Shown here in pieces: positions 3,001-25,236 of a DNA stretch of 25,691 nt. The position numbers and the translations under genes are program-made. Each line of letters begins with the position of its first letter. The stretch's first letter is position 1. The stretch is taken from contig JBLDXI010000123.1 in NCBI GenBank assembly GCA_047495785.1, forward strand, positions 1 through 25,691, read 5' to 3'. This DNA is from Lepidodermella squamata. Lineage: Eukaryota; Animalia; Gastrotricha. The notes beneath the pieces are model-generated. The model did not search any database. It was not told where the DNA came from and saw only the letters and a list, made by a program, of their open reading frames with translations.

Positions 3001-3523
3001 CACCATCTAGCTTAATTGAATGAGATTCCTCCTCGGAGTCGTCGATATTAGCGACACCGGATGCGGAATCGAACCCACCACAAGCTTGGTCGAAGCCCGA
3101 TGAAGCCGGATTGTTAGAGGACGTTTTCATGGAAGATTCAACCGATAGTGTTTGCAAAGACCCAGCTTCGTCTATCGTCTCGATTTCTCCGCCCGGGGTG
3201 CCGGATGGGTTGTGAACTAACGAGACTGAAGATGAAGAGGGTGTCGAAGGATAATGTCGGCAAACTTCGATGAGTGGCGTGAGCGCGGTTTGAATTGTCA
3301 TTGGCGAGTATTTTGGCCTGACATTCGTGCTTTTGCTAGCTGCTTTTACCAAGTGCACGAAATCTGCTACGTTTGTAAAATTCAACATTGAAGTCGATCT
3401 GCTACCAAGTGAAGACGAAACGAATTGCATGAAAAGCTTGGCCGATTGGAATAGCATAGACTTCTTCGTGTTATTCACAGCTGAGCTATCAACACCAGCT
3501 AGTAACAACTGCCGGTCAAGATA
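1..3523 (-). CDS. HERC2: HERC2-like giant E3 ubiquitin ligase, internal part (exons 3523-866 and 802-<1; 63-nt intron 803-865); 5' part cut off at the element junction, 3' part runs off the window
   Basis: Domain order matches HERC2: UBA-like (RRLTEMGFSR...SLDAVVNWLVEN), CPH-like, SH3-like IEIGDSVKVRDSVTVPRYKWGSVTHGSIGVV, ZZ-like Cys cluster, DOC/APC10-like, then RCC1 repeats (VYGWGLNDKEQL; after splicing GHVYACGDASNGRLGLG, SVHSGGRHAMALS, GKVFTFGKGDYYRLGHG). Frame is open up to the junction (YLDRQLLLAG). Confidence 0.9.
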
Positions 3524-3545
3524 AGTAGTAAGGATGGGAACTTTG

Positions 3546-3710
3546 GATCAGTAATAGCAGTACGGCGATTTTTACTATAGCCGTTTGGTATAAATATACG
3601 CAATTTGCGATCAGTAATGGCAGTACGGCGATTTTTACTATACCCGTTTGGTATAAATATACGCAATTTGGGGATGAGTAATAGCAGTACGGCGATTTGT
3701 ACTATAGCCG
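3546..3710 (+). repeat. Subterminal tandem repeat, about 2.6 copies of a 63-64 bp unit
   Basis: GATCAGTAATAGCAGTACGGCGATTTTTACTATAGCCGTTTGGTATAAATATACGCAATTTG-like unit starts at 3546, 3609 and 3673 (partial). Confidence 0.95.
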
Positions 3711-3976
3711 CTTCTTGTCAATATACCTTCGTTTTAACCCACTGCTATGATTTCACCTAACTAAAATAAACAAATCTTCGTTTTTTCACCTGTTATGAGC
3801 TAAACTAATCATTTTTACACTGCTTCTTTAGTGCAGCTGCAATAGAGCCCTTTTTCATTCACACAAACACTTTTTATTAGTCTTAACGTTTCAAGCAATG
3901 AATTTATAGCTGGGATAAGTCTTATCAGTTTTTCTATTCATTTGTTCAGAGATTTGTAGCGGCTTGATTGGAGGGG

Positions 3977-4480
3977 TTAACGTCCAGATGAACCGAATCC
4001 GTTATCGCCACGGGTCGAATTTGCTGCTAGAGCGTTTTTCAATGGCCCCGTTACCGTTACTGCAGATTCTAAGCGACCATATTTTAAACACACCAACTGG
4101 GTAATACGGTCGCCTATTTTAATCTTGTAAGGTGTTTTGCTGTTGTTTGCAAGGCAGACTACGATTTTTCCGGTGTAGTCGGCGTCTTTAATTCATGAAA
4201 AATACAGATATTCATTAGTAATTTTCATTATTATTTGCTTCTTACCTATTACTCCAGCGACCGTATCGATTCCATGGTTGATGCTCATTCCTGATCGACT
4301 GAATAGTTGTCCATAATATCCTCGTGGTAAACAGATTTTAATATCAGTTTGAATCAGTCCCCTGGTTCCAGGTTGCAGTGTCGTCTCTTCTGCTGAATAG
4401 ATGTCCCAACCCACAGAGCCTTTAGTATGCTTTGTCGGTTCTTTAGCTTTGTTACTTGTTAGCTCTACCTTCAGCTTCAT
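3977..4480 (-). CDS. dut: Trimeric dUTPase, 147 aa, 2 exons (60-nt intron 4186-4245)
   Basis: Spliced product has all five motifs: VGWDI, SRSG, GVI|DADYTG, GDRITQL, RGDNGFGSSG. Confidence 0.95.
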
Positions 4481-4914
4481 ATTTTATAATTTATATTGTT
4501 ACTGAGGTTCGATTTTTATGTGAGCGGCTACCTCCTTTCAGGCATATTGTTTTTGTAATTCAATCTTCCTTAAAAATGCATTAGGGCCTTTAGCTCTGTT
4601 GACCCCTCAGTGCTGGCTTTAATGCTTTTCATCAAAGATTCTTGGTATTGTATACATCCTCCTTAATTGCTGTCGGTAATTCAATAAGAAAACATCATGT
4701 CAATAAATCTTATACATCCTCCCTAATTAAACAATGCGATTTTTTACTTATCAAAATAAAAAGCAATTAGGATTTTTTACCCTTTACGGTGTAATTACCT
4801 TAAACAATTCAAACAAAACATCTCCCTGTTTTTTCCTTTTATGGAAATATCACTCAGACTATTTAAGAGAGATGCTTCAAGAATACACTTAGCATATTTC
4901 TTGAAGCAAGCTGG
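4481..4914. promoter_or_regulatory. Putative divergent promoter region between dUTPase and dNK
   Basis: AT-rich gap between head-to-head genes; TATTTAA at about 4860; 18-bp direct repeat TATACATCCTCC(T/C)TAATT at 4651 and 4711. Confidence 0.5.
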
Positions 4915-5679
4915 ATGCATCCTAAAGTCTACCATTTCGGCATAGTCGGCAACATTGGGGCGTAAGTCTCATATACTCCACCGAATAGAATTCTATTTAA
5001 AGTCTCTTGTTTTAGCGGGAAATCAACCTTAATCGAGGGTCTCACTAATCTACCTTCACTCAACCGTAAACTTCAGGGATATACCGCGTGGCCAATTTGC
5101 GAGCCTGTTCATCGTTGGGAGTCCTTTACTGATGACGATAAAACTAACATTTTGAAAGATTACTATCAGATGAAAAATGCGTTCAACTTTCAAATTGTAG
5201 CCACGAGTGATATGTGCGGCCTTTATTCAGCCCCTAACCACAAACCTGAAATCTACGGGGCGCATACTATCGTTCTGCATGATCGAACGCCCTTCTGTTC
5301 TAAAAACGTCTTTATCCCATGTGCGTATGCATCCAAGCGCATAAATTCTATCGAATATCACGCTCTCATGAATTTGTATGATAATTTCGAGCCGAATTTT
5401 GTAAAAACTGAAGCTATTATTTACTTGCGCTCCTCTCCCCAAATAGCTTGTCAAAGAGCCGTAGCTAGAGCTCGGGGTTCTGAAATGCTATTATCACTGG
5501 ATTATTTACGCCTCGTACATGAGTTTCATGAAAAAATGTGTACTGTTGAGACTACAAACAAATCCCTACCATGTCCCGTGCTTGTTATCGACACTGATAA
5601 TTTGAATGCCTCTGAGGTTCTAAAGCAAGCTTCTCAGTATGTTGCCTCTCTTATCACGCCTGTAATCTCTCAGACTTGA
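4915..5679 (+). CDS. Deoxynucleoside kinase (dNK/TK2 family), 236 aa, 2 exons (54-nt intron 4962-5015)
   Basis: Splicing restores P-loop GNIGA|GKST; EPVHRW, DRT at the ERS/DRS position, IIYLRSSP, lid RAVARARGSE, YLRLVHEFHE. Confidence 0.92.
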
Positions 5680-5689
5680 ATCCTCATTG

Positions 5690-6052
5690 ATGGATCCAAC
5701 AAGACTTGTGCTCTCGAACAGCCAGATTTTAGACGCTGAATCTTTGCAATGTCCAATTTGTTTATCTATCCTACTTAATCCTATTCAAACGCGCCCCTGT
5801 GGCCATTTATTTTGTACTAAATGTGTTCTCGCTATTTTTCAAAATTCAGCTCGAACAGTATGTTGCTGTCCACTTTGCCGCGAATCATTAACAGGGAAAG
5901 ATTTCGTTAAACCCCCTGTAATTTTATCGAACATTATCTCGAATTTGATTTACAAATGCCAATATTCTGATAAAGGCTGTCCCATTACTCTAACTTATGA
6001 CCTCATTTTTGGGCATGAAAAGTTATGCCAATATAAAGAACCCATCCCTTAA
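5690..6052 (+). CDS. C3HC4 RING finger protein with a C-terminal TRAF/SIAH-like Zn finger, 120 aa
   Basis: CPIC...PCGHLFCTKC...CPLCR followed by CQYSDKGC...HEKLCQY; ATG at 5690. Confidence 0.88.
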   Translation: MDPTRLVLSNSQILDAESLQCPICLSILLNPIQTRPCGHLFCTKCVLAIFQNSARTVCCCPLCRESLTGKDFVKPPVILSNIISNLIYKCQYSDKGCPITLTYDLIFGHEKLCQYKEPIP

Positions 6053-6094
6053 AGTTTTACATTCTTATTTCATTAGATTTAATTTTCAATAATC

Positions 6095-6616
6095 ATGGCT
6101 GAGGCGATAGTAGAATCTGCTAACCAGACAGTCAATCATCACATGTCTAGTAACTTGGTCATTCAACAGCATCCTCAGGATTCTAATCTCATCTACATAA
6201 TGACTGATCGCAAAGATAAGAACGATAAGCCTAAAAAACTCGCCTTTAGACAAGACGAATTTCTTAGCCAGTTCGTTCCTTATTTTCGACCGCCGAATGA
6301 TGCTTGGGTTGCTCAGGCTCAACTTGCCCTGCTATCTCACAACACAGGCTTTAAATTTTCGATGCATGAATGCAAAATTGAAGTCTGTGTCTTTGTGCCA
6401 TCATTTTCACCGATTCTTATAGATATACGCAGGTTTTATCTGGATGCTAAAGGTATTTACTTCAAATTTACAGTAATAGCAATCTTTTTATGATTTAACT
6501 TTTTAGGAAATAAACAACCCTCAAGACAAGGAGTCTCTCTTGATGCAGCTCAGTTTCAAGACCTTGCAACTGGGGTGTTAACTGTTGCAGCGATGATTGA
6601 AACAGCCAATGAATAA
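6095..6616 (+). CDS. PC4 (p15/Sub1)-like ssDNA-binding protein, 155 aa, 2 exons (54-nt intron 6453-6506)
   Basis: Spliced C-terminus ILIDIRRFYLDAKG|NKQPSRQGVSLDAAQFQDL matches the PC4 signature (IDIRxFY...PxxxGISL...QF/W); AATAAA at 6675. Confidence 0.8.
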
Positions 6617-6733
6617 GCTAACACAAAACTTGACTAAAATGACTTACTGAATATTTATTTCAATCTATCCTTGTAATAAAGTTTTACCTCTTCCCAAATT
6701 CGATCAATTTTAAATTTTTAATCTTAGATTGTT

Positions 6734-9700
6734 ATGGATAACTATAGTTTACAATACTCATTTATTCGAAGTAATCGCCTGATTCATTCTACAAAATTCA
6801 AAATGTTTTCTGTGGAGTACTTCATTCAGCCCGTAACATCCGACTTTGCCTCAACCTACATCAACAGATATGGCCAATCTTCTAGTTCGCTTGGGCCGAT
6901 GATTCAATTGTCTGGTGGCGCTGATGAACCTCGACTGGATAATATTCGATCATTTGTGCAGAACGTACCAGCCGACCAGGTGGCTAATATTGATTTGGAG
7001 ACCCGCTTCAATATTCTGGCCAACTTCCTGTTCGATATTGTTGTAAATATCCATCGTGATTTACCTGTGAATTCCTTCTGCCGGCTAACACTGTACCACC
7101 CCGACTTGAAGATGCCTCTTAGCCTACCCTTCATGAAACGCGATCGGTTGCTGGAAATTTCAATTTTTGATCAACTGAGAAAAATATTACAGAGTAATGA
7201 AGAACTCTCATTTGCTGGTCGGTGGACAATTCGTCTCTGTGTCATTGATAACCCCAATGCAGATCTAGGTCAAATTGTTGGTGGTTCTCGGGCAGAGCGG
7301 GCTATAAACGAAACTTTGGACAAATTTTTTCTTCGCTCCAAATCGATCGTTAGAATCGGAGCGCGCAAGAATGAAACGAACAATCTTTGCATGGGCAGAG
7401 CTCTCATCACTGGAGTGGCTTTGGCTCACATGAAGGCGAATCCTACGGATCCATCTCTTCAAGCAACCTTCAAATCGATACGTAGTACGCGAACCAATCG
7501 TCAATTTCGCGAAGCCACGGCGCTATATCAGAAAGCGGGCTTACCTCTCAACCTTCCAGCCTACAATCTAGATGATCATTACTCAGCCCTGTGTTCGGCT
7601 ATCGATCCTGAACATAATACTTACAGATTCGTAGTATACTCGTACGAATCACAGGATGTTATTAGGGAAATCCCAGAATTTGATCATCGCGTAAGCCTTG
7701 GGTTGCTTCCTGTTGTTCTACTGGTTTATCGCAACGACGTCTCTCAGCCCAACAGTCATCATTTTCATGTCATTGCGAATCTCAACTTTATGAAGGCCAC
7801 TCTTAGCAATGCACAACGAATATGCCCCACTTGCTTTCAGACGAAAACGAGTACGGCTGTGCACAGATGCAAGTTGGCATGCTCTTCCTGCCGTAATTTT
7901 TACATGAAAAACCTGAATTTCACTTCTTTTATCATTAATATTATTTTAGGTGTATCAGGGAGCATTTGCCGTGTGATTTCCAACACAGACCAACAAAACT
8001 ACACGCGGTGTCCGCAATGTCGTGCAGGTCTGATGTTTTTAACCTTTTCATTATTATTCAGCTCTTTTTATGTTTTTAGTTTTGTATAGCGAACGTTGTA
8101 AGCAAAACCACAAATGTGCTAAAAAGAATCCATGCTTTAAATGCGGGAGGAAATTTGTACATTTTCTCAAGCATGAGGCTATGTGTCCCGGGCGGCGCTG
8201 TCACATTTGTCAGGAGCCTTTGAAAGCCAGCGACGAAGAAAATGGCACACACTTCTGCTTCATGACTCCCTTGGTATACTCATTTTTTTCAGTCCAGCTT
8301 TTTTCAAAATACTGTGGTTGGTGTATTTTTAGCCCTTGAAACCGGCGAATAAACTGGAACGTTATCGTAACCTAGTTTTTTGGGACACTGAGACATTTTC
8401 GCCATCACTTGCTGATAACAACAATGAGTTCCAAGTATGCCTTATCGTTGCAAAGGTCGTATGCATACCTCACTGCATCGAAGCGAGGATTCAGCGATGC
8501 CATTCTAGTTGTGGACTTCATATTTTTTATGGAAGTCGTCCTCTGGAGGATTTCGTAAACTGGGTGCTTCTACCTATGAATTACCAGTCGATTTATTTGG
8601 CTCACAACTCAGCCAATTTCGATTCCTTATTATTACTGAAAGAAATTCAAACACGATGTTCTAAAGTGAAGATTCTTCAAAGGCAGGGATCTCTACTATG
8701 CATTGATTTCAAACAACAAAAAATCAGATTTTTGGATTCATATCTCTTTTTTCAATGCAGATTAAGGTAGGTTACCTAAGAAACACTAAGAAACTACATT
8801 GCTTACAGGTATTTGTTCAACAACAGGGATTTACCAGCAACAATGGGAATCCCAGACAAGAAAACCTTCTTTCCTTACGTCTTATGCACTAAAGAAAAGT
8901 AAGTACATCATCAACTTCTTGAGCTATTGTGATTGAATTCGCTGTAATCCTTCGAGTTTCAATCTCGAATTCCCACAGCTGCCTAATATGATCTACTATG
9001 AGCCTGACAAAATGTCTCCTTCTGAAAGAGCAGAATTTCTAACTTTCTACAACGAAAACAAACTGAAACGGTTCAGTGTTCGCCACACGTTACTGCAATA
9101 CTGCATACAGGATTGTCTAGTTTTGGAAAAGGCGTCAATCAAATTTCGGGCGCTAATGCTGGAGTTGTGTTCTACTGATGCCTTTAAAGAATGCATCACA
9201 CTAGCTTCTCTCACAAGCACATGCTTCCGCAAGCTGTTTCTTACGAAGGATACATTACCTGTCATCCCGACCGCTGGCTACTGTGGCAAGGATTCACACA
9301 GCAGGCTCTCGATAGCTTTTCTTCAATTTCTGATGGAGTCTGACCCTGAAACTTATGGTTCAATGAAACACGCTCAGAACTCACGTCAAGAAGTTCGAAT
9401 ATCTATACCTGGCCACCGTTATCCTTATCGCGTCGACGGTTTTGTTGCACGTCGTGATAAAATTCCGAGTGAACCCGATCTGATTGTCGAGGTTCATGGT
9501 TGTGCTGTCCATGGCTGCTTGCAATGCTTTGAGGCCTCACAACTAAATTTTCTATCTGGACAACCAAACGGCGTAGTTTACAAGCAAACCTTGGAACGTG
9601 AAGAGTTGTTTCGCTCGAATGGTTACATTCTTCAAAGCTTTTGGGAGCATGAAATTAGAGCTAGTTTCAAACAACACCCGAGAGCACAGGAGATTTATGA

Positions 9701-11592
9701 TAATCTCACAATAGCTAATGTAATGGAGAGCCGTTCGTTTTTCTTTGGAGGTAACTGGAGGTTTTCCCTATTTAATCTTCGCGGGATTAAAACATCATGC
9801 CTACTTTTTAGGGCGGGTCGAAGCTTTTCGTTTAATGGCTATGATTGCCGAATCACACTCAACTTCAGGCGACCAAAATTTGGAAAAGATTGCTCAAATT
9901 TGTAAGGAAAGCGGGATGCAAACCAAGGACTTCTTATTTCCATCGCCCGATTATTCTATAATTTCCGCCGACTTCAACTCGTTATATCCAAGCTGTATGA
10001 TGGATGGCTACTATGCAATAGGACCACCTAAAGTATCCACCTTGGATCTCAGATTAAACAACGAGAAACTGCAGGAGATTTATTCAAAGGAATCTTTTTT
10101 TGGTGTCGTACAAGCACGCGTAAGCTCTTCGCATCTACATATCGTCTCCCTGCTTTCATCATCACCACATTATTTTGCTAGGTATTAGCGCCGAAAAACA
10201 TCTGGCTACCTGTACTCTGCTTTCGTAGTAAACAAAACAAGCTCGTGTTCTCATGTTGCTATGCTTGTTCGTCGACTGCAAATCCAAACTTGTGCGTTTC
10301 AAGCCGTGAATGCACCCATTCTGATTATGAAAGGTCCTGGATTGGTTCGTATTGCTCTGTGGAACTGAAGTACGCTACAGATGTTCATGGCTACAGATTG
10401 CTGGAAGTCTACGAGGTTAATAATTTTGTTTAGCCAACTCATGCATGGCTTCTATCAAGTTATTTTTTTTAGATATGGGAGTTCAAGAAGAGCAATACAA
10501 TTTTCAGAGATTTCATTAAAAGATTCACCATTTTGAAGGCCGAATCCTCCGGCTGGCCGCCAAACTGTGCTACTAGTGAACAAAAAGCACAGTATTTGGA
10601 GCAATGGGAACGCATTGGTATAACGATTGATAGCAACACATCTCGTGAGAGTAAGAACCCTGGGTTACGCGCGATCGCCAAATTAGTTTTGAACAGCTTT
10701 TTTGGTCGATTTGCTATGAATTCTAATCTAGAGAGAACAGATTATATCAAATCCCCGTTTCTGCTTCAGCAAATGCTAAATAATCCAGCTTTGGAAATTG
10801 TGGATATTCAACCACTAGGCTTACTCATCAACTCTGATGATGTCTCTCGCTTGCGAATTGTAACACGGCCAACCAAAGATGCCGACGTTCCAAATGGATC
10901 CACCTCAGTTATAACAGCGGCCTTCGTAACAGCTAATGCTCGTGTGAAACTGGCTCGTGAGCTGTACCGAGTCGGCCCAAAAAGTGCTATCTACAGCGGT
11001 TAGAGAATAGCGCCGCTTATGCTACCAACATCTCTACGTTTTTTGTCTTTTGTTTTAGACACGGATTCAATTTTTTGCCTTCAAGGGCCTGGAATTACTA
11101 AAATTGAGTTCACACCCGTTCTTGGCGGCTTGGCGGATCAGCTTGATACAGGGCAACGCATCATTGCAATGGTTGTACTGGGCTGTAAGGCATATGCCCT
11201 ACTTTTTGCTGACGGCAAAGCCAAGCTAATGTTAAAGGTAATTGCTACTTGTTGTTACGCCCTCTGTTTTTTATTATTTACGTCACGCGCAGGGAATACG
11301 TCAAAGTTTTCATTCACACAGTCTTCTCGATTTTTTCTTGTTCATCAAGCATGTAATACAAAGTCTCCACGATAACGAAACCAGCGGAAGCGGGGGCCGG
11401 GGTGATAACAACAAAAACAGCGTCATCGCTGAATTGGATCAGACTCAGTTTAAAAAAGTGCATACTCCGTTATCGGAAATTCATTGTGTTCATATAACAA
11501 AAAAGATTCGTTTAACCTATGATAAACGTTGGCTACGCCCCGGCGATGCTTCCTTTCTAACTTATCCACATGGATATAGCGCTGATCAATGA
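6734..11592 (+). CDS. polB: Protein-primed family B DNA polymerase, about 1425 aa, 11 exons (introns 7893-7949, 8028-8079, 8274-8332, 8767-8826, 8899-8956, 9751-9811, 10120-10181, 10416-10472, 10999-11058, 11238-11292)
   Basis: One open frame after splicing: Cys/His-rich region, ExoI FWDTET, ExoII AHNSANFD, ExoIII YCIQD, FFG|GRVE, motif A DFNSLYP, KAESSGWP, motif B KLVLNSFFG, motif C YS|DTDS, K|G, terminal YDKR...TYPHGY. Confidence 0.93.
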
Positions 11593-11599
11593 TCGATTA

Positions 11600-12751
11600 T
11601 TACATGAATAAACTCCAAAACCCTGTGCCAGCTTGAAACTTGTTGATTTTATTTATCTTACGCTGTGACGTTCTTCGGAAAAGTTTTCCAGGTGGTGATA
11701 TTTGTGTTTGATCAGTCATAGAACGTGGCTTTCTACCGCGCTTTTGACCCTTCCGTGGCGTTGCCGCTGCAGTTGCTGCTCCAGCTAGCTCAATTTCCAT
11801 CGGTTCAGCGGCAGCGGCTTCTTCTTGCCTTTCTGCTTGATTATCATCATTATCAGCACCATCTTGCAGCTCTTCACTATTGCTGCCGCTGCTGTCCTCA
11901 TCGCCGCTAAACGAAGACGACCCTGCTGTTGTGTTGCTGTCTCGAGGGGCCTGGGGGGTGCGCGCGCGGGGGGTCCCTCCTCTCGTAGGCAGCTGCTCAT
12001 CATTAGGCCGATCAACAACAACATCATCGTGGCTGAGGACGGTCGTGGCTGCAGCGCTAGAAGTCGATGATGTTTGCGGGGCAGCGAATAGAAAATCCAT
12101 TTGAAGATCATCAAATTCATAATTGCTGCTATTATCAGTTGAAGGTCGTGGCGTTGTATTAGGTGAAAACTGCTGCTGAAAGCCGCCAATACCCGAATCT
12201 CTGTTATAGTTGTTATAGCTAGGCCCGGCCGCTTGACCAAAATTACTAGATGTTAATTTAGTAGGTTGTTGGCGCGCAAGTTGTTGTTGCTGCTGTTTTT
12301 TTGGAGGAGGAGGAGGAGGAGGAGAAGAAGCAGAAGGAAGCGGCGGCGGCGGCAGCGGAGGAGGAGGAGGAGGAGGAGGAGGAGGAGGAGGAGGAGAGCG
12401 CGGCCTCGATTCTGCTCGATCTGCTGGTGCAGGCGACATTGGAATAGCGGCTGGCGGCTGGCTACTGCCTTGTAAAACTACCAGCTTCTTCAAATTCATA
12501 ATCTCATGCATGAGTTCGTTACGTTTTCGCACTAAATCGGCTGAATTATCACTACTACTAGCGTTGTTTATCACATCCCGGTCTAAAGACTGTAATAGCT
12601 GCACTAGTTTGAAAAGCAGAGGATTGCTCAGCAATGTTTTAGCAGCAATCAAGTCGCTCGCGTTTGGTTGTTGTTGTTGTTGTTGTGCTGGAGTTGGCCC
12701 AGGTGTCGCAAGTGGAACAATAGTCATGCGCTGTGCATAGTTTCGCTGCAT
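11600..12751 (-). CDS. Pro-rich, low-complexity Maverick accessory protein, 383 aa
   Basis: Long ORF convergent with pPolB; N-terminal YAQRMTIVP resembles from memory the AxKMxLVP start of a conserved Maverick ORF; helical segment, poly-Pro, acidic tract, basic tail, terminal Trp. Confidence 0.7.
   Translation of the reverse strand: MQRNYAQRMTIVPLATPGPTPAQQQQQQPNASDLIAAKTLLSNPLLFKLVQLLQSLDRDVINNASSSDNSADLVRKRNELMHEIMNLKKLVVLQGSSQPPAAIPMSPAPADRAESRPRSPPPPPPPPPPPPPLPPPPLPSASSPPPPPPPKKQQQQQLARQQPTKLTSSNFGQAAGPSYNNYNRDSGIGGFQQQFSPNTTPRPSTDNSSNYEFDDLQMDFLFAAPQTSSTSSAAATTVLSHDDVVVDRPNDEQLPTRGGTPRARTPQAPRDSNTTAGSSSFSGDEDSSGSNSEELQDGADNDDNQAERQEEAAAAEPMEIELAGAATAAATPRKGQKRGRKPRSMTDQTQISPPGKLFRRTSQRKINKINKFQAGTGFWSLFM
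12303..12395 (+). repeat. (GGA)n/(GGC)n trinucleotide tract encoding poly-proline on the minus strand (mirror at about 13399-13491)
   Basis: Visible directly in the sequence. Confidence 0.9.
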
Positions 12752-12754
12752 AGT

Positions 12755-13168
12755 TTAGATTCGAAGAAGCCTCTTGAGTTCTGAATAATCAAACTTTAGC
12801 CTGGGTGCAAAGGATTTCAATACAGTGGGTAAAACTGCAAAAAAGGAAGCTTTCGAAGCCTTATTTCGCCTATTGTTCTTGTTGCTATTAAGGCAGTGTC
12901 GAATAAAAACTTGCCGGTTGTGCTCGACCAAATTGACACCTTTTTGTTTCAATTTAGCCAAATCAGGGGCCAGAACAGTACTAGTGCTGCGAAGCCAATA
13001 CAAGGCGCAACGGCTAAGAAATCGTATAAGGCTAACAGAGCTAGTTGCTAAAATATCAGCACGCTGACCGGGGTGAGCATGCAATAACCATTTCAATGCA
13101 AGAAAAAGCCGCCGTTTTTTATCAAGACTGAACGATGGTGACGTTGCTGAGGTAATAACTTTATTCAT
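12755..13168 (-). CDS. Small basic protein resembling a conserved Maverick/Polinton small ORF, 137 aa (single copy, in spacer)
   Basis: LKWLLHAHPGQRADILATSSVSLIRFLSRCALYWLR pattern and amphipathic C-terminal FFAVLPTVLKSF; TATAAAA 32 nt upstream; stop lies 3 nt before the next ATG. Family assignment is from memory. Confidence 0.6.
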   Translation of the reverse strand: MNKVITSATSPSFSLDKKRRLFLALKWLLHAHPGQRADILATSSVSLIRFLSRCALYWLRSTSTVLAPDLAKLKQKGVNLVEHNRQVFIRHCLNSNKNNRRNKASKASFFAVLPTVLKSFAPRLKFDYSELKRLLRI

Positions 13169-13199
13169 TTAACGACGAAAATTGGGCGGCAATGAATCC

Positions 13200-13206
13200 T
13201 TTTATA
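13200..13206 (-). promoter_or_regulatory. Putative TATA box for the 137-aa ORF
   Basis: TATAAAAG on the minus strand about 30 nt upstream of ATG 13168. Confidence 0.45.
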
Positions 13207-13219
13207 ATAGTACATATCA

Positions 13220-13288
13220 TCATTTCTTTGAGACTAAAATGTAAGCGTAACCAGGTTTACTACCGAAGCCATTGCTCGAACGAATGCG
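13220..13288 (-). pseudogene. Possible 3' remnant of the packaging ATPase gene, cut at the breakpoint
   Basis: Reads (L)RIRSSNGFGSKPGYAYILVSKK*, loosely like the LRxRT...Y C-terminus of Maverick ATPases; only 22 codons. Confidence 0.3.
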
Positions 13289-14194
13289 GAGATTATGAAT
13301 TTGAAGAAGCTGGTAGTTTTACAAGGCAGTAGCCAGCCGCCAGCCGCTATTCCAATGTCGCCTGCACCAGCAGATCGAGCAGAATCGAGGCCGCGCTCTC
13401 CTCCTCCTCCTCCTCCTCCTCCTCCTCCTCCTCCTCCGCTGCCGCCGCCGCCGCTTCCTTCTGCTTCTTCTCCTCCTCCTCCTCCTCCTCCAAAAAAAAC
13501 AGCAGCAACAACAACTTGCGCGCCAACAACCTACTAAATTAACATCTAGTAATTTTGGTCAAGCGGCCGGCCTAGCTATAACAACTATAACAGAGATTCG
13601 GGTATTGGCGGCTTTCAGCAGCAGTTTTCACCTAATACAACGCCACGACCTTCAACTGATAATAGCAGCAATTATGAATTTGATGATCTTCAAATGGATT
13701 TTCTATTCGCTGCCCCGCAAACATCATCGACTTCTAGCGCTGCAGCCACGACCGTCCTCAGCCACGATGATGTTGTTGTTGATCGGCCTAATGATGAGCA
13801 GCTGCCTACGAGAGGAGGGACCCCCCGCGCGCGCACCCCCCAGGCCCCTCGAGACAGCAACACAACAGCAGGGTCGTCTTCGTTTAGCGGCGATGAGGAC
13901 AGCAGCGGCAGCAATAGTGAAGAGCTGCAAGATGGTGCTGATAATGATGATAATCAAGCAGAAAGGCAAGAAGAAGCCGCTGCCGCTGAACCGATGGAAA
14001 TTGAGCTAGCTGGAGCAGCAACTGCAGCGGCAACGCCACGGAAGGGTCAAAAGCGCGGTAGAAAGCCACGTTCTATGACTGATCAAACACAAATATCACC
14101 ACCTGGAAAACTTTTCCGAAGAACGTCACAGCGTAAGATAAATAAAATCAACAAGTTTCAAGCTGGCACAGGGTTTTGGAGTTTATTCATGTAA
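13289..14194 (+). pseudogene. 5'-truncated copy of the Pro-rich ORF with two compensating 1-nt indels
   Basis: Lacks the first ~82 codons; A8 versus A7 at 13492-13499 and a missing G near 13570. Confidence 0.85.
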
Positions 14195-14201
14195 TAATCG
14201 A

Positions 14202-17200
14202 TCATTGATCAGCGCTATATCCATGTGGATAAGTTAGAAAGGAAGCATCGCCGGGGCGTAGCCAACGTTTATCATAGGTTAAACGAATCTTTTTTGTTAT
14301 ATGAACACAATGAATTTCCGATAACGGAGTATGCACTTTTTTAAACTGAGTCTGATCCAATTCAGCGATGACGCTGTTTTTGTTGTTATCACCCCGGCCC
14401 CCGCTTCCGCTGGTTTCGTTATCGTGGAGACTTTGTATTACATGCTTGATGAACAAGAAAAAATCGAGAAGACTGCGTGAATGAAAACTTTGACGTATTC
14501 CCTGCGCGTGACGTAAATAATAAAAAACAGAGGGCGTAACAACAAGTAGCAATTACCTTTAACATTAGCTTGGCTTTGCCGTCAGCAAAAAGTAGGGCAT
14601 ATGCCTTACAGCCCAGTACAACCATTGCAATGATGCGTTGCCCTGTATCAAGCTGATCCGCCAAGCCGCCAAGAACGGGTGTGAACTCAATTTTAGTAAT
14701 TCCAGGCCCTTGAAGGCAAAAAATTGAATCCGTGTCTAAAACAAAAGACAAAAAACGTAGAGATGTTGGTAGCATAAGCGGCGCTATTCTCTAACCGCTG
14801 TAGATAGCACTTTTTGGGCCGACTCGGTACAGCTCACGAGCCAGTTTCACACGAGCATTAGCTGTTACGAAGGCCGCTGTTATAACTGAGGTGGATCCAT
14901 TTGGAACGTCGGCATCTTTGGTTGGCCGTGTTACAATTCGCAAGCGAGAGACATCATCAGAGTTGATGAGTAAGCCTAGTGGTTGAATATCCACAATTTC
15001 CAAAGCTGGATTATTTAGCATTTGCTGAAGCAGAAACGGGGATTTGATATAATCTGTTCTCTCTAGATTAGAATTCATAGCAAATCGACCAAAAAAGCTG
15101 TTCAAAACTAATTTGGCGATCGCGCGTAACCCAGGGTTCTTTTTATCCAACTTGGTGCTATCAATCGTTATACCAATGCGTTCCCATTGCTCCAAATACT
15201 GTGCTTTTTGTTCACTAGTAGCACAGTTTGGCGGCCAGCCGGAGGATTCGGCCTTCAAAATGGTGAATCTTTTAATGAAATCTCTGAAAATTGTATTGCT
15301 CTTCTTGAACTCCCATATCTAAAAAAAATAACTTGATAGAAGCCATGCATGAGTTGGCTAAACAAAATTATTAACCTCGTAGACTTCCAGCAATCTGTAG
15401 CCATGAACATCTGTAGCGTACTTCAGTTCCACAGAGCAATACGAACCAATCCAGGACCTTTCATAATCAGAATGGGTGCATTCACGGCTTGAAACGCACA
15501 AGTTTGGATTTGCAGTCGACGAACAAGCATAGCAACATGAGAACACGAGCTTGTTTTGTTTACTACGAAAGCAGAGTACAGGTAGCCAGATGTTTTTCGG
15601 CGCTAATACCTAGCAAAATAATGTGGTGATGATGAAAGCAGGGAGACGATATGTAGATGCGAAGAGCTTACGCGTGCTTGTACGACACCAAAAAAAGATT
15701 CCTTTGAATAAATCTCCTGCAGTTTCTCGTTGTTTAATCTGAGATCCAAGGTGGATACTTTAGGTGGTCCTATTGCATAGTAGCCATCCATCATACAGCT
15801 TGGATATAACGAGTTGAAGTCGGCGGAAATTATAGAATAATCGGGCGATGGAAATAAGAAGTCCTTGGTTTGCATCCCGCTTTCCTTACAAATTTGAGCA
15901 ATCTTTTCCAAATTTTGGTCGCCTGAAGTTGAGTGTGATTCGGCAATCATAGCCATTAAACGAAAAGCTTCGACCCGCCCTAAAAAGTAGGCATGATGTT
16001 TTAATCCCGCGAAGATTAAATAGGGAAAACCTCCAGTTACCTCCAAAGAAAAACGAACGGCTCTCCATTACATTAGCTATTGTGAGATTATCATAAATCT
16101 CCTGTGCTCTCGGGTGTTGTTTGAAACTAGCTCTAATTTCATGCTCCCAAAAGCTTTGAAGAATGTAACCATTCGAGCGAAACAACTCTTCACGTTCCAA
16201 GGTTTGCTTGTAAACTACGCCGTTTGGTTGTCCAGATAGAAAATTTAGTTGTGAGGCCTCAAAGCATTGCAAGCAGCCATGGACAGCACAACCATGAACC
16301 TCGACAATCAGATCGGGTTCACTCGGAATTTTATCACGACGTGCAACAAAACCGTCGACGCGATAAGGATAACGGTGGCCAGGTATAGATATTCGAACTT
16401 CTTGACGTGAGTTCTGAGCGTGTTTCATTGAACCATAAGTTTCAGGGTCAGACTCCATCAGAAATTGAAGAAAAGCTATCGAGAGCCTGCTGTGTGAATC
16501 CTTGCCACAGTAGCCAGCGGTCGGGATGACAGGTAATGTATCCTTCGTAAGAAACAGCTTGCGGAAGCATGTGCTTGTGAGAGAAGCTAGTGTGATGCAT
16601 TCTTTAAAGGCATCAGTAGAACACAACTCCAGCATTAGCGCCCGAAATTTGATTGACGCCTTTTCCAAAACTAGACAATCCTGTATGCAGTATTGCAGTA
16701 ACGTGTGGCGAACACTGAACCGTTTCAGTTTGTTTTCGTTGTAGAAAGTTAGAAATTCTGCTCTTTCAGAAGGAGACATTTTGTCAGGCTCATAGTAGAT
16801 CATATTAGGCAGCTGTGGGAATTCGAGATTGAAACTCGAAGGATTACAGCGAATTCAATCACAATAGCTCAAGAAGTTGATGATGTACTTACTTTTCTTT
16901 AGTGCATAAGACGTAAGGAAAGAAGGTTTTCTTGTCTGGGATTCCCATTGTTGCTGGTAAATCCCTGTTGTTGAACAAATACCTGTAAGCAATGTAGTTT
17001 CTTAGTGTTTCTTAGGTAACCTACCTTAATCTGCATTGAAAAAAGAGATATGAATCCAAAAATCTGATTTTTTGTTGTTTGAAATCAATGCATAGTAGAG
17101 ATCCCTGCCTTTGAAGAATCTTCACTTTAGAACATCGTGTTTGAATTTCTTTCAGTAATAATAAGGAATCGAAATTGGCTGAGTTGTGAGCCAAATAAAT

Positions 17201-19057
17201 CGACTGGTAATTCATAGGTAGAAGCACCCAGTTTACGAAATCCTCCAGAGGACGACTTCCATAAAAAATATGAAGTCCACAACTAGAATGGCATCGCTGA
17301 ATCCTCGCTTCGATGCAGTGAGGTATGCATACGACCTTTGCAACGATAAGGCATACTTGGAACTCATTGTTGTTATCAGCAAGTGATGGCGAAAATGTCT
17401 CAGTGTCCCAAAAAACTAGGTTACGATAACGTTCCAGTTTATTCGCCGGTTTCAAGGGCTAAAAATACACCAACCACAGTATTTTGAAAAAAGCTGGACT
17501 GAAAAAAATGAGTATACCAAGGGAGTCATGAAGCAGAAGTGTGTGCCATTTTCTTCGTCGCTGGCTTTCAAAGGCTCCTGACAAATGTGACAGCGCCGCC
17601 CGGGACACATAGCCTCATGCTTGAGAAAATGTACAAATTTCCTCCCGCATTTAAAGCATGGATTCTTTTTAGCACATTTGTGGTTTTGCTTACAACGTTC
17701 GCTATACAAAACTAAAAACATAAAAAGAGCTGAATAATAATGAAAAGGTTAAAAACATCAGACCTGCACGACATTGCGGACACCGCGTGTAGTTTTGTTG
17801 GTCTGTGTTGGAAATCACACGGCAAATGCTCCCTGATACACCTAAAATAATATTAATGATAAAAGAAGTGAAATTCAGGTTTTTCATGTAAAAATTACGG
17901 CAGGAAGAGCATGCCAACTTGCATCTGTGCACAGCCGTACTCGTTTTCGTCTGAAAGCAAGTGGGGCATATTCGTTGTGCATTGCTAAGAGTGGCCTTCA
18001 TAAAGTTGAGATTCGCAATGACATGAAAATGATGACTGTTGGGCTGAGAGACGTCGTTGCGATAAACCAGTAGAACAACAGGAAGCAACCCAAGGCTTAC
18101 GCGATGATCAAATTCTGGGATTTCCCTAATAACATCCTGTGATTCGTACGAGTATACTACGAATCTGTAAGTATTATGTTCAGGATCGATAGCCGAACAC
18201 AGGGCTGAGTAATGATCATCTAGATTGTAGGCTGGAAGGTTGAGAGGTAAGCCCGCTTTCTGATATAGCGCCGTGGCTTCGCGAAATTGACGATTGGTTC
18301 GCGTACTACGTATCGATTTGAAGGTTGCTTGAAGAGATGGATCCGTAGGATTCGCCTTCATGTGAGCCAAAGCCACTCCAGTGATGAGAGCTCTGCCCAT
18401 GCAAAGATTGTTCGTTTCATTCTTGCGCGCTCCGATTCTAACGATCGATTTGGAGCGAAGAAAAAATTTGTCCAAAGTTTCGTTTATAGCCCGCTCTGCC
18501 CGAGAACCACCAACAATTTGACCTAGATCTGCATTGGGGTTATCAATGACACAGAGACGAATTGTCCACCGACCAGCAAATGAGAGTTCTTCATTACTCT
18601 GTAATATTTTTCTCAGTTGATCAAAAATTGAAATTTCCAGCAACCGATCGCGTTTCATGAAGGGTAGGCTAAGAGGCATCTTCAAGTCGGGGTGGTACAG
18701 TGTTAGCCGGCAGAAGGAATTCACAGGTAAATCACGATGGATATTTACAACAATATCGAACAGGAAGTTGGCCAGAATATTGAAGCGGGTCTCCAAATCA
18801 ATATTAGCCACCTGGTCGGCTGGTACGTTCTGCACAAATGATCGAATATTATCCAGTCGAGGTTCATCAGCGCCACCAGACAATTGAATCATCGGCCCAA
18901 GCGAACTAGAAGATTGGCCATATCTGTTGATGTAGGTTGAGGCAAAGTCGGATGTTACGGGCTGAATGAAGTACTCCACAGAAAACATTTTGAATTTTGT
19001 AGAATGAATCAGGCGATTACTTCGAATAAATGAGTATTGTAAACTATAGTTATCCAT
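14202..19057 (-). CDS. polB: pPolB, mirror copy (about 1424 aa, same 10 introns)
   Basis: Reverse complement of 6734-11592; differs by TKLDK versus NTSRES and one H/R change. Confidence 0.93.
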
Positions 19058-19174
19058 AACAATCTAAGATTAAAAATTTAAAATTGATCGAATTTGGGAA
19101 GAGGTAAAACTTTATTACAAGGATAGATTGAAATAAATATTCAGTAAGTCATTTTAGTCAAGTTTTGTGTTAGC

Positions 19175-19696
19175 TTATTCATTGGCTGTTTCAATCATCG
19201 CTGCAACAGTTAACACCCCAGTTGCAAGGTCTTGAAACTGAGCTGCATCAAGAGAGACTCCTTGTCTTGAGGGTTGTTTATTTCCTAAAAAGTTAAATCA
19301 TAAAAAGATTGCTATTACTGTAAATTTGAAGTAAATACCTTTAGCATCCAGATAAAACCTGCGTATATCTATAAGAATCGGTGAAAATGATGGCACAAAG
19401 ACACAGACTTCAATTTTGCATTCATGCATCGAAAATTTAAAGCCTGTGTTGTGAGATAGCAGGGCAAGTTGAGCCTGAGCAACCCAAGCATCATTCGGCG
19501 GTCGAAAATAAGGAACGAACTGGCTAAGAAATTCGTCTTGTCTAAAGGCGAGTTTTTTAGGCTTATCGTTCTTATCTTTGCGATCAGTCATTATGTAGAT
19601 GAGATTAGAATCCTGAGGATGCTGTTGAATGACCAAGTTACTAGACATGTGATGATTGACTGTCTGGTTAGCAGATTCTACTATCGCCTCAGCCAT
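19175..19696 (-). CDS. PC4-like protein, mirror copy
   Basis: Reverse complement of 6095-6616. Confidence 0.8.
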
Positions 19697-19738
19697 GATT
19701 ATTGAAAATTAAATCTAATGAAATAAGAATGTAAAACT

Positions 19739-20101
19739 TTAAGGGATGGGTTCTTTATATTGGCATAACTTTTCATGCCCAAAAATGAGGTCATAAGTTA
19801 GAGTAATGGGACAGCCTTTATCAGAATATTGGCATTTGTAAATCAAATTCGAGATAATGTTCGATAAAATTACAGGGGGTTTAACGAAATCTTTCCCTGT
19901 TAATGATTCGCGGCAAAGTGGACAGCAACATACTGTTCGAGCTGAATTTTGAAAAATAGCGAGAACACATTTAGTACAAAATAAATGGCCACAGGGGCGC
20001 GTTTGAATAGGATTAAGTAGGATAGATAAACAAATTGGACATTGCAAAGATTCAGCGTCTAAAATCTGGCTGTTCGAGAGCACAAGTCTTGTTGGATCCA
20101 T
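19739..20101 (-). CDS. RING finger protein, mirror copy
   Basis: Reverse complement of 5690-6052. Confidence 0.88.
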   Translation of the reverse strand: MDPTRLVLSNSQILDAESLQCPICLSILLNPIQTRPCGHLFCTKCVLAIFQNSARTVCCCPLCRESLTGKDFVKPPVILSNIISNLIYKCQYSDKGCPITLTYDLIFGHEKLCQYKEPIP

Positions 20102-20111
20102 CAATGAGGAT

Positions 20112-20876
20112 TCAAGTCTGAGAGATTACAGGCGTGATAAGAGAGGCAACATACTGAGAAGCTTGCTTTAGAACCTCAGAGGCATTCAAATTATCAGTGT
20201 CGATAACAAGCACGGGACATGGTAGGGATTTGTTTGTAGTCTCAACAGTACACATTTTTTCATGAAACTCATGTACGAGGCGTAAATAATCCAGTGATAA
20301 TAGCATTTCAGAACCCCGAGCTCTAGCTACGGCTCTTTGACAAGCTATTTGGGGAGAGGAGCGCAAGTAAATAATAGCTTCAGTTTTTACAAAATTCGGC
20401 TCGAAATTATCATACAAATTCATGAGAGCGTGATATTCGATAGAATTTATGCGCTTGGATGCATACGCACATGGGATAAAGACGTTTTTAGAACAGAAGG
20501 GCGTTCGATCATGCAGAACGATAGTATGCGCCCCGTAGATTTCAGGTTTGTGGTTAGGGGCTGAATAAAGGCCGCACATATCACTCGTGGCTACAATTTG
20601 AAAGTTGAACGCATTTTTCATCTGATAGTAATCTTTCAAAATGTTAGTTTTATCGTCATCAGTAAAGGACTCCCAACGATGAACAGGCTCGCAAATTGGC
20701 CACGCGGTATATCCCTGAAGTTTACGGTTGAGTGAAGGTAGATTAGTGAGACCCTCGATTAAGGTTGATTTCCCGCTAAAACAAGAGACTTTAAATAGAA
20801 TTCTATTCGGTGGAGTATATGAGACTTACGCCCCAATGTTGCCGACTATGCCGAAATGGTAGACTTTAGGATGCAT
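20112..20876 (-). CDS. Deoxynucleoside kinase, mirror copy (intron 20776-20829)
   Basis: Reverse complement of 4915-5679. Confidence 0.92.
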
Positions 20877-21310
20877 CCAGCTTGCTTCAAGAAATATGCT
20901 AAGTGTATTCTTGAAGCATCTCTCTTAAATAGTCTGAGTGATATTTCCATAAAAGGAAAAAACAGGGAGATGTTTTGTTTGAATTGTTTAAGGTAATTAC
21001 ACCGTAAAGGGTAAAAAATCCTAATTGCTTTTTATTTTGATAAGTAAAAAATCGCATTGTTTAATTAGGGAGGATGTATAAGATTTATTGACATGATGTT
21101 TTCTTATTGAATTACCGACAGCAATTAAGGAGGATGTATACAATACCAAGAATCTTTGATGAAAAGCATTAAAGCCAGCACTGAGGGGTCAACAGAGCTA
21201 AAGGCCCTAATGCATTTTTAAGGAAGATTGAATTACAAAAACAATATGCCTGAAAGGAGGTAGCCGCTCACATAAAAATCGAACCTCAGTAACAATATAA
21301 ATTATAAAAT

Positions 21311-21814
21311 ATGAAGCTGAAGGTAGAGCTAACAAGTAACAAAGCTAAAGAACCGACAAAGCATACTAAAGGCTCTGTGGGTTGGGACATCTATTCAGCA
21401 GAAGAGACGACACTGCAACCTGGAACCAGGGGACTGATTCAAACTGATATTAAAATCTGTTTACCACGAGGATATTATGGACAACTATTCAGTCGATCAG
21501 GAATGAGCATCAACCATGGAATCGATACGGTCGCTGGAGTAATAGGTAAGAAGCAAATAATAATGAAAATTACTAATGAATATCTGTATTTTTCATGAAT
21601 TAAAGACGCCGACTACACCGGAAAAATCGTAGTCTGCCTTGCAAACAACAGCAAAACACCTTACAAGATTAAAATAGGCGACCGTATTACCCAGTTGGTG
21701 TGTTTAAAATATGGTCGCTTAGAATCTGCAGTAACGGTAACGGGGCCATTGAAAAACGCTCTAGCAGCAAATTCGACCCGTGGCGATAACGGATTCGGTT
21801 CATCTGGACGTTAA
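21311..21814 (+). CDS. dut: dUTPase, mirror copy (intron 21546-21605)
   Basis: GTAAGA...AAAG intron joins GVI to DADYTG; ends RGDNGFGSSGR*. Confidence 0.95.
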
Positions 21815-22080
21815 CCCCTCCAATCAAGCCGCTACAAATCTCTGAACAAATGAATAGAAAAACTGATAAGACTTATCCCAGCTATAAATTCATTGCTTGA
21901 AACGTTAAGACTAATAAAAAGTGTTTGTGTGAATGAAAAAGGGCTCTATTGCAGCTGCACTAAAGAAGCAGTGTAAAAATGATTAGTTTAGCTCATAACA
22001 GGTGAAAAAACGAAGATTTGTTTATTTTAGTTAGGTGAAATCATAGCAGTGGGTTAAAACGAAGGTATATTGACAAGAAG

Positions 22081-22245
22081 CGGCTATAGTACAAATCGCC
22101 GTACTGCTATTACTCATCCCCAAATTGCGTATATTTATACCAAACGGGTATAGTAAAAATCGCCGTACTGCCATTACTGATCGCAAATTGCGTATATTTA
22201 TACCAAACGGCTATAGTAAAAATCGCCGTACTGCTATTACTGATC
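22081..22245 (-). repeat. Subterminal tandem repeat, mirror copy
   Basis: Reverse complement of 3546-3710. Confidence 0.95.
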
Positions 22246-22267
22246 CAAAGTTCCCATCCTTACTACT

Positions 22268-22473
22268 GGCTTCTTCTTGTTATCGAGCTTGACTGAGCCA
22301 GACGTTAGAACCAGCGTTTCCAGGCAGGTTTTATGGATGTGGCCAATCGATCCTCGGCATGAGCAAAATTTGGTGTAAAGAGGGCCTGAACTATCGTCGT
22401 CTTCGCAACCGCTTAAACAAATTCTGCATCTAACCGTGGTTTGAAAACTGTCGGCTCTCTGCCTCTCAGCCAT
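22268..22473 (-). pseudogene. MARCH-type RING-CH gene truncated by the element
   Basis: CRIC...FCSCRGSIGHIHKTCLE; the final CxxC is missing, and the last ORF residues (VVRMGTLDQ) are read from the element terminus. Confidence 0.85.
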
Positions 22474-22657
22474 GCTATTATTTAATTTCTAGCTATAACA
22501 CTTGTGTAGTGGCAGTGTTGAGTGTTGCCTTCCATTTTTTGTAGTATGTAGCTTTGTGTTTTTTGCTTGCACGCACAAAGAAATGACCTAGACCGAAATT
22601 AGGTAAACTCCAGGTGAAAAACTTTCCTTTATTTACGCAAGACTGGATAAAAAACAA

Positions 22658-23311
22658 TCACACTGAGCTTATTTCATCAACTACCACTGGAGGCATTTTA
22701 AAGCTTTGAATCTTGTTCTCGAAATTTCGTGTCTTGAACATCCCACACCATTCTTCCCGCTTCGTCGAGATTGTGTAGACAATGAAAATTAAGCAGACCA
22801 AGCATATAGGCAGGGTGAAGAATAGGCTCAACGCGGCCAGATAAAGAAAGACGTAGCCGAAGAGTATCACAAGAGTTTCGAATGACCCAACTTTCCCGAT
22901 CGCGATAGAATCGACGGTTTCGTTTCCGGCGCTGTCAGTTTGCTCATCGCCAATTTCCGTTTGGTTGAGGCTGATTGCCGACCACAAGCCCAGAGCAACG
23001 AGACAGACTAGTAACAGAGTCACGAGAACAGTTTTAACCTCATGCTCGTGCAATGAAGGCAAGCGCCACCGTTGAGGCGGCTTTATCCGGCGAATGATGC
23101 TGATTTGAAAATTATTGCGGCAAATTTCGCACCGAGGCTGTTCGAGGAGATAACTTGCAGAATCAAGGGATGGATTCATGGCCTTCTCGAGGCATCTCTT
23201 ATGGGCGAAACCAATCGAACCTCGGCAGGAGCAGAATCCATTGTAGAGTTTATCCCTGGTCCTGCTTTGCCTTTTGCTGAATAAACAAATTCTGCAGAAA
23301 TTCTCCGGCAT
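22658..23311 (-). CDS. MARCH-like RING-CH E3 ligase with two transmembrane regions, 217 aa, intronless
   Basis: CRIC...CSCRGSIGFAHKRCLE...CEIC (C4HC3) followed by two hydrophobic segments separated by a loop with NQT and NET sequons. Confidence 0.88.
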   Translation of the reverse strand: MPENFCRICLFSKRQSRTRDKLYNGFCSCRGSIGFAHKRCLEKAMNPSLDSASYLLEQPRCEICRNNFQISIIRRIKPPQRWRLPSLHEHEVKTVLVTLLLVCLVALGLWSAISLNQTEIGDEQTDSAGNETVDSIAIGKVGSFETLVILFGYVFLYLAALSLFFTLPICLVCLIFIVYTISTKREEWCGMFKTRNFENKIQSFKMPPVVVDEISSV

Positions 23312-25166: not shown

Positions 25167-25236
25167 AAATGTGAAAACAACGGGAATTTATTTTATGATT
25201 TTTTTCGCTCGTCCTTTCATCAATAAATGTTTGAGA

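Follow-up and report, generated by a model that had tools for sequence, protein, structure and literature searches.

A palindromic pair of Maverick half-elements between two host genes on a Lepidodermella squamata contig

Genes and features of the palindrome

The window (the whole 25,691-nt stretch of DNA that was analysed) contains an 18.7-kb stretch composed of two reverse-complementary arms, 3524-12505 (8982 nt) and 13289-22267 (8979 nt), with a 783-nt spacer between them. Both arms begin with an AGTAGT terminus and a 63-nt tandem repeat, and the stretch as a whole reads AGTAGT...ACTACT, in agreement with the Maverick terminal motif (AG)3 or (AGT)2 (PMC8097293). The arm alignment and the shared terminal repeat bear out the sequence-only reading of this DNA insofar as it described two ~9-kb inverted arms with a common terminus. 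The following features were assigned:

1-3523, minus strand: HERC2-like host gene, represented by its downstream part, with the left terminus interrupting a coding exon
3524-12505, plus strand: left arm, pPolB-side half of a Maverick (alignment, Pfam)
3524-3710, no strand: terminus, AGTAGT start and 2.6 copies of the 63-nt repeat (sequence)
3977-4480, minus strand: dUTPase gene with one intron (PF00692, E=9e-15)
4966-5679, plus strand: deoxynucleoside kinase (dNK), main exon (PF01712, E=1e-21)
5690-6052, plus strand: RING-finger gene (PF00097, E=4e-7)
6098-6617, plus strand: small gene with one intron (spliced in X3), weakly PC4-like (PF02229, E=0.13, below the cut-off)
6728-11592, plus strand: pPolB, left copy, 11 exons (PF03175 in four exon ORFs)
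11600-12754, minus strand: proline-rich ORF of 384 aa, spanning the spacer into the left arm
12506-13288, no strand: spacer, where the left-arm element continues normally (one X1 contig)
12755-13168, minus strand: basic ORF of 137 aa (six-frame scoring and synteny)
13220-13296, minus strand: probable last ~25 codons of a packaging ATPase gene, cut by the junction (shuffle scoring, weak)
13289-13296, no strand: junction microhomology, 8 nt (an X1 contig follows the window to 13296, then diverges)
13289-22267, minus strand: right arm, inverted copy of the left-arm half (alignment, public contigs)
14202-19063, minus strand: pPolB, right copy, 10 introns of 52-62 nt, in phase, ~1426 codons
22268-22473, minus strand: RING-v (MARCH-like) host gene, represented by its upstream part, interrupted within the RING domain

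Pfam analysis of 21 selected window ORFs placed dUTPase, dNK, RING and protein-primed DNA polymerase B (pPolB) genes in the arm and returned no integrase, capsid, protease or ATPase. The earlier description of a half-Maverick with only the replication side, lacking recognisable genes for the latter four functions, therefore holds.

Public runs (X1 to X4) were searched with the window. X1 is the deepest run, X2 and X3 were taken as RNA solely from GT..AG joints, and X4 yielded no matches to the window, which is no proof of absence. The evidence from X1 to X3 consists of assembled contigs, which drop rare variants. Fixed host alleles differ between X1 and the window, so X1 may represent another strain.

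The 11 exons of the right pPolB copy join in phase without stops, and a spliced contig was found in X2; a decayed pseudogene was rejected, as the frame changes are introns. The mirror intron of the dUTPase gene (21543-21604) is spliced in X2 and the dNK intron (4962-5015) in X3. Relatives of pPolB numbered 2027 at E≤0.001. A viral contig collection yielded no relatives of a pPolB exon, of the 137-aa ORF, of one further protein or of one alignment used as queries. None of six window proteins occurs in the collection searched for them, and the best hits of an ADH query, from unrelated taxa, reach at most 47% identity. The parent element is a new Maverick with an in-phase, 10-intron pPolB, transcribed as read from the GT..AG joints in X2 and X3.

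The genes at the spacer were assigned with less certainty. The 384-aa proline-rich ORF matches no Pfam or PHROG family, and its partial mirror in the right arm is frameshifted. The 137-aa ORF is likely the counterpart of a small gene located behind the packaging ATPase gene of Mavericks related to this one: it scored best of 390 six-frame pieces (E=0.061, a score reached by 1 of 1000 shuffles), and the order ATPase, then small basic ORF, recurs in five fetched loci. Pairwise scoring suggests that 13220-13296 is the probable 3' tail of that ATPase, as its score against five ATPase C-termini was reached by 28 of 2000 shuffles (p ~0.014) and that against whole proteins by 138 of 2000 (p ~0.07). 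The tail has no Pfam match and fell outside the ten best six-frame pieces scored with a C-terminal ATPase HMM.

Termini, flanks and central junction

Both termini are base-exact in the arm alignment. The first ~77 nt of the terminus are common to another end type in public contigs, with loose ends at 3600 (X1, X3) and 22191/22128 (X1, X3/X2); this second end type may be the far end of the element, sharing a natural short TIR. The 9-kb arms themselves were rejected as natural TIRs of the family from the public contigs, which show both a continuation of the spacer and a different far end. At least three other terminal flanks of the element were present in public contigs among the matches listed, and the element is multicopy. 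Its depth in X1 is ~15 times that of the host flank, a tool-specific depth that is not a copy number, and this excess was for that reason rejected as a sign of free virus. Five of the long arm contigs among the matches listed show no differences between X1 and the window while host flanks differ, and the element therefore looks recently active.

Neither a search with k=4-9 and offsets -3 to +3 nor a comparison of the flanking 6-mers, which agree at 1 of 6 positions, revealed a TSD at the ends of the 18.7-kb stretch. Without the 5-8 bp TSD of Mavericks, the stretch is not an intact member, although each half descends from such an element. Each end lies in a different host gene. The left flank matches HERC2 (best PDB hits E=3e-17 and 6.5e-108) with RCC1 repeats in Pfam, and the right flank matches RING-v (PF12906, E=9e-9, profile positions 1-36 of 47). 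Uninterrupted alleles exist for both: for the HERC2-like gene in X1, seen as a loose end of 206 nt behind 3524, and for the RING-v gene in X1 (depth 141) and X2. The lack of a TSD, the two interrupted host genes and the microhomology described below had gone unreported in the sequence-only reading.

The central junction is an inversion over 8 nt, in which 13289-13296 is the exact reverse complement of 12498-12505; owing to this microhomology, the true switch point lies anywhere within 13289-13296. The centre was accordingly recognised correctly as a template-switch-type fold-back, with a cut that probably falls within the 3' end of the ATPase gene. One X1 contig spans 12474-13296 and continues for 638 nt of other sequence (depth 1699). 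The arm/spacer depth ratio in X1 is 1.08, not 2. No strand-switch joint was found among 155 X1 and 13 X3 records (1% reporting; contigs only), and an exact 32-nt spacer pattern had no matches among metagenome contigs. X2 contains a fold-back joint on the same element elsewhere, at 18970/19061.

Global alignment of the arms gave 12 unlike columns that represent four events: an in-frame block swap (10635-10652 vs 15142-15157), a single substitution (11318/14476) and two 1-nt indels (12224/13571 and 12295/13499). All four fall in the inner 21% of the arms (P ~0.002 under a uniform null, for a span picked post hoc). Contigs of X1 carry neither the left block nor the left substitution, and one right indel is likewise missing from them. 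The left swapped block has no hydrophobic residue near a position that is hydrophobic in 30/30 pattern-matched relatives. This pattern of arm differences would suit thin read support around the junction.

Origin of the palindrome

We give slightly better than even weight to the explanation that two pPolB-side halves of an ordinary multicopy Maverick, resident in two host genes, were joined by a fold-back chimera and the assembler. During library amplification or sequencing, a nascent 3' end at 13296 would have been displaced and would have primed again on the opposite strand, ~0.8 kb back, and the assembler would then have followed the chimera between the two insertion sites. As many near-identical copies have the 9-kb arm in common, the contig could be extended into the flank of the second copy. 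The lack of a TSD, the unrelated flanks, the inverted microhomology, the normal continuation and the different far end all argue for this explanation, and so do the arm/spacer depth ratio in X1, the missing strand-switch joint among the X1 and X3 records and the fold-back joint of X2. Of MDA chimeras, 85% are described as inverted with an intervening deletion, with priming over 2-21 nt and mostly <10 kb (PMC1855051), and 40-50% of PacBio reads from Arabidopsis WGA are given as palindromic (10.1101/173872). The junction has this geometry, with an inversion, an intervening deletion and 8-nt complementarity between sites ~0.8 kb apart.

Three points count against this explanation. A pure fold-back read would mirror the flank, so an extra copy switch by the assembler is needed; the path requires three junctions, none of which equals the X1 forms listed; and amplification and low read support are presumed from contig data.

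The 8-nt inverted microhomology is a signature of phi29-amplification chimeras and also of in-vivo template switches. Microhomology-mediated template switching in vivo equally gives microhomology and clustering of mutations near the junction. A real, private rearrangement is a serious contender, to which we assign roughly one chance in three. Either two insertions of opposite orientation, in the HERC2-like and RING-v genes, became joined when a microhomology-mediated deletion took out the host DNA between them and the capsid/integrase half of each, or a copy that had folded back in vivo later underwent recombination with a second copy via one of its arms or came to have its two ends integrated at separate places. 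The base-exact termini suit such an event, as do the recent activity of the element, the orientation of the host gene halves (both on the minus strand, as after deletion between inverted insertions) and an in-frame block and substitution of the kind by which two copies might differ. Polinton copies have, moreover, been inferred to cause inversions in C. elegans (PMC11414722). Two independent breakpoints would, however, fall within 0.8 kb in element coordinates only ~8-10% of the time, the arm differences cluster at the centre and are not evenly spread, the upstream part of the HERC2-like gene and the downstream part of the RING-v gene would be lost, and no such rearrangement was seen in X1 or X3 contigs.

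A combined scenario seems rather improbable: an in-vivo fold-back would have produced a two-origin, polymerase-only snap-back, whose identical ends then joined two host genes through uncoupled integration or recombination through one arm.

The model put forward in the sequence-only reading, a two-origin snap-back defective Maverick with its own pPolB that was integrated as a unit by a helper integrase, is improbable to a greater degree still. Snap-back genomes have reportedly been described for AAV (PMC8235507), and the same terminus at both ends, the total of 18.7 kb, the in-phase pPolB and the template-switch microhomology are as such a molecule would have them. Had the molecule inserted as a unit, a 5-8 bp TSD and the two halves of a single target would be expected at its ends; neither was found, and the model is contradicted at this locus because the flanks are unrelated. 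The normal continuation and the different far end also speak against it. Independent or recurrent molecules with over-represented arms were not seen in the contigs of X1 and X3, possibly another strain; since X1 shows no surplus of arm depth relative to the spacer and no joint, accumulation as a defective genome is not indicated in that run. An assembly artefact or a fusion of two insertions, which the same reading had listed as alternatives, fit better. Least credible of all is that the three junctions are all library chimeras of abundant free linear element DNA with random host fragments and that neither insertion exists, since, despite two ends in mid-exon of host genes with uninterrupted X1 alleles and no TSD, this needs three rare chimeras on one path and other terminus-flank junctions in X1 and X2 indicate that integrated copies appear to exist.

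Comparison with known systems

If the palindrome is an artefact, it warns that giant Maverick palindromes lacking a TSD and lying between unrelated flanks are best regarded as misjoins, for which TSD, flank genes and continuation in public contigs provide a cheap test. A real junction would be a direct footprint of an animal Maverick pPolB at work in strand-displacement replication, and a route to host rearrangement; the parts of the literature that were consulted contain no report of this kind. Should the combined snap-back and rearrangement scenario be true, a defective-interfering Maverick form would have been caught driving chromosomal rearrangement. In both cases the parent element, a Maverick that is transcribed, appears to have been active recently and has an intron-rich polymerase, is a usable candidate for studying active animal Mavericks.

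With Mavericks/Polintons (eupolintoviruses, 'adintoviruses') the element shares a PF03175-type pPolB, whose animal relatives (Tubulanus, Panagrolaimus, Nasonia) show 32-36% identity, the (AGT)2 end motif, the multicopy state and the order of a probable ATPase and then a small basic ORF that the five fetched loci also have. The window differs in that it carries dUTPase, dNK and RING genes, and that genes for integrase, capsid and protease, and likewise a TSD, are missing. At 9 kb, the arms are far longer than the usual Maverick TIR of 100-1500 bp (10.1101/2023.08.22.554363), and 10 introns are spliced from its pPolB, in contrast to intact vertebrate elements, which are described as intronless (PMC8097293). 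Among 80 fetched pPolB loci, none contained a multi-kb near-perfect palindrome and four had inverted repeats of ≥100 nt, in a set with only 16 loci of ≥9 kb, where palindromes of this kind would interrupt short-read contigs.

MDA/WGA inverted chimeras and palindromic long reads resemble the junction in their inversion, short non-duplicated spacer, priming homology (8 nt here) and segments <10 kb apart; the window differs in its non-mirrored flanks and in the assembler switch between copies that is also needed. AAV-type snap-back genomes likewise have one terminus at both ends and replication-side genes only, but the window shows no sign of a free or accumulating molecule or of insertion as a unit. 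At the eri-6/7 locus of C. elegans, where TIRs and remnants flank an inverted host segment (PMC11414722), Polinton ends similarly lie beside rearranged, interrupted host genes, whereas here two half-elements are fused centre to centre.

Arms, termini and genes

The 18.7-kb palindrome at 3524..22267 consists of two inverted arms (3524-12505, plus strand, and 13289-22267, minus strand) that differ in 12 of ~8980 aligned columns, grouped in four events, and are separated by a 783-nt spacer. The two arms open with the same AGTAGT terminus, which also holds a 63-nt tandem repeat. The inverted arms proposed in the sequence-only reading are confirmed. In keeping with that reading, no integrase, capsid, protease or ATPase family matched any of the 21 window ORFs scanned. 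From the terminus inward, the genes are a dUTPase, a deoxynucleoside kinase, a RING gene, a weakly PC4-like gene and the protein-primed DNA polymerase B (pPolB).

Features of the palindrome and its right flank
3524-3710, left arm: terminus with the 63-nt tandem repeat
3977-6617, left arm: accessory cluster of the first four genes, between terminus and pPolB
14202-19063, right arm (minus): pPolB, with its mirror copy at 6728-11592
22268-23383: two tandem RING-v (MARCH-like) host genes
23922-25166: intronless ADH gene, its listed database matches reaching 47% identity at most

Public sequencing runs were compared as assembled contigs: X1, the deepest, and X2 and X3, taken as RNA from their GT..AG joints. 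X2 contigs leave out 10 GT..AG segments of 52-62 nt over pPolB. The 11 exons stay in phase and contain zero stops over ~1426 codons; the frame changes in pPolB are therefore introns. A search with one pPolB exon gives 2027 relatives at E ≤ 0.001; among the ten best looked up, the three clusters that carry names hold animal polymerases or uncharacterised proteins, at 32-36% identity. The accessory cluster is also covered by X2 contigs, one of which terminates at 22079 in a poly(A) run. This intron-rich Maverick sits in an intron-poor neighbourhood, the adjoining host genes being kilobase-long, almost intronless open frames.

A second terminus type, sharing ~77 nt with the window terminus, occurs among loose ends in X1, X2 and X3 (three studies), three further flanks adjoin the window terminus in X1, and the element has ~15x the host-flank depth there, a depth that does not equal copy number. 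This points to a multicopy element with two unlike ends as the common form. In public contigs, two end types other than the window terminus split from it at 3600 and 3556, which suggests the far end and a related family or derivative. The halves derive from a new, transcribed Maverick of known kind, probably recently active.

Spacer and central junction

The spacer (12506..13288) carries on the left arm in the ordinary way. A 384-aa ORF spans the 12505/12506 boundary, and a 137-aa ORF ranks first among 390 six-frame pieces (E = 0.061; 1/1000 shuffles) against a profile for the small basic gene found after the ATPase in five fetched Maverick loci. The last stretch before the junction, ~25 codons, bears a weak resemblance to ATPase C-termini (28/2000 shuffles for the last 50 residues, 138/2000 for whole proteins). 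The sequence-only reading called for a search for copies running past 13288; an X1 contig of depth 1699 spans 12474-13296 and then runs on for 638 nt foreign to the window. Integrase and capsid genes of the parent presumably lie beyond the junction. In X2, a contig leaves the window at 13175 with 40 loose nt which, compared by eye, match the X1 continuation past 13296 in reverse complement. On that comparison, they are independent evidence of normal continuation and of a separate fold-back in the X2 library.

Since the X1 match overruns the apparent arm boundary by 8 nt that are the reverse complement of 12498-12505, the central junction is an inversion across an 8-nt microhomology. The left half was compared alone, so that this junction would register as a strand-switch joint; none was present among the 155 X1 and 13 X3 records listed (1% threshold). 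In the comparison that included X2, with 24 of 344 pieces displayed, a bridging contig does not register as a joint. X2 has another fold-back joint on the element (18970/19061). L055, a Maverick-like pPolB locus fetched for comparison, carries a ~1-kb inverted duplication with a short spacer (786-3008, 79% identity), possibly an old fold-back.

The innermost 1871 nt hold all four arm differences (assuming uniform placement, P ~0.002; the span was picked post hoc). Three are missing from X1 and the fourth lies inside a skipped repeat. One is an in-frame block difference between the pPolB copies (10635-10652 versus 15142-15157), of which X1 and X3 have the right-arm form only. Pattern matching found the motif in 35 of 157 proteins and the full pattern in 30; the left-arm block misses a hydrophobic residue near a position that is I, V or M in all 30, while the right-arm block has a leucine there, one position off, with spacing one residue longer than usual. 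Error, a repair scar or a second copy are candidate origins. The central clustering and the odd left block suit thin support near the junction.

Host flanks and target sites

A Maverick inserted as a unit is expected to duplicate 5-8 bp of a single target. No target-site duplication (TSD) was found at the palindrome ends (k = 4-9, offsets -3 to +3), and the flanking 6-mers agree at one of six positions; the 18.7-kb unit is not an intact Maverick. To its left lies the downstream portion of a HERC2-like gene, to its right the upstream portion of a RING-v gene, broken after profile position 36 of 47. Uninterrupted forms of both exist in public contigs, HERC2 in X1 (as a loose end behind 3524) and RING-v in X1 (at host depth) and X2. 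Hence the left and right termini lie at two separate sites. The flanks are of almost equal length (3523 nt, 1-3523, and 3424 nt, 22268-25691); were the window a complete short contig, this would fit a spur or alternate contig.

Origin of the palindrome

We lean towards a fold-back chimera combined with an assembly misjoin, so that the artefact listed as an alternative in the sequence-only reading becomes the leading explanation. A fold-back read would arise inside a multicopy 9-kb repeat, and the assembler would presumably enter via the flank of one copy and exit via that of another, giving the observed anatomy. Against this, microhomology and clustered mutations are also marks of in-vivo template switching. 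X1 may be another strain, its host flanks differing from the window at many positions while the element is nearly identical, and rare forms are lost from contigs.

A real private fusion or rearrangement, which takes in the earlier alternative of two fused insertions, is less probable. The way the host gene halves are oriented would allow a genuine deletion between two insertions in inverted orientation, and inversions linked to Polintons are reported for C. elegans (PMC11414722), but two independent breakpoints would come this close in element coordinates in only 8-10% of cases. The snap-back defective form integrated as a unit, as first proposed, is very unlikely given the missing TSD, termini in two unrelated host genes, arm contigs at 1.08x the spacer-contig depth instead of 2, and no strand-switch joint among the X1 and X3 records listed. 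That all junctions are chimeric is more improbable still.

Paper searches listed no account of whole-element palindromic Mavericks; the preprint checked (10.64898/2026.07.28.741278) treats 52-nt terminal palindromes. Palindromic long reads are described as frequent from amplified DNA (10.1101/173872). In the main class of phi29 amplification chimeras an inversion accompanies a short intervening deletion, with priming homology of 2-21 nt (PMC1855051); the window junction is an inversion over 8 nt.
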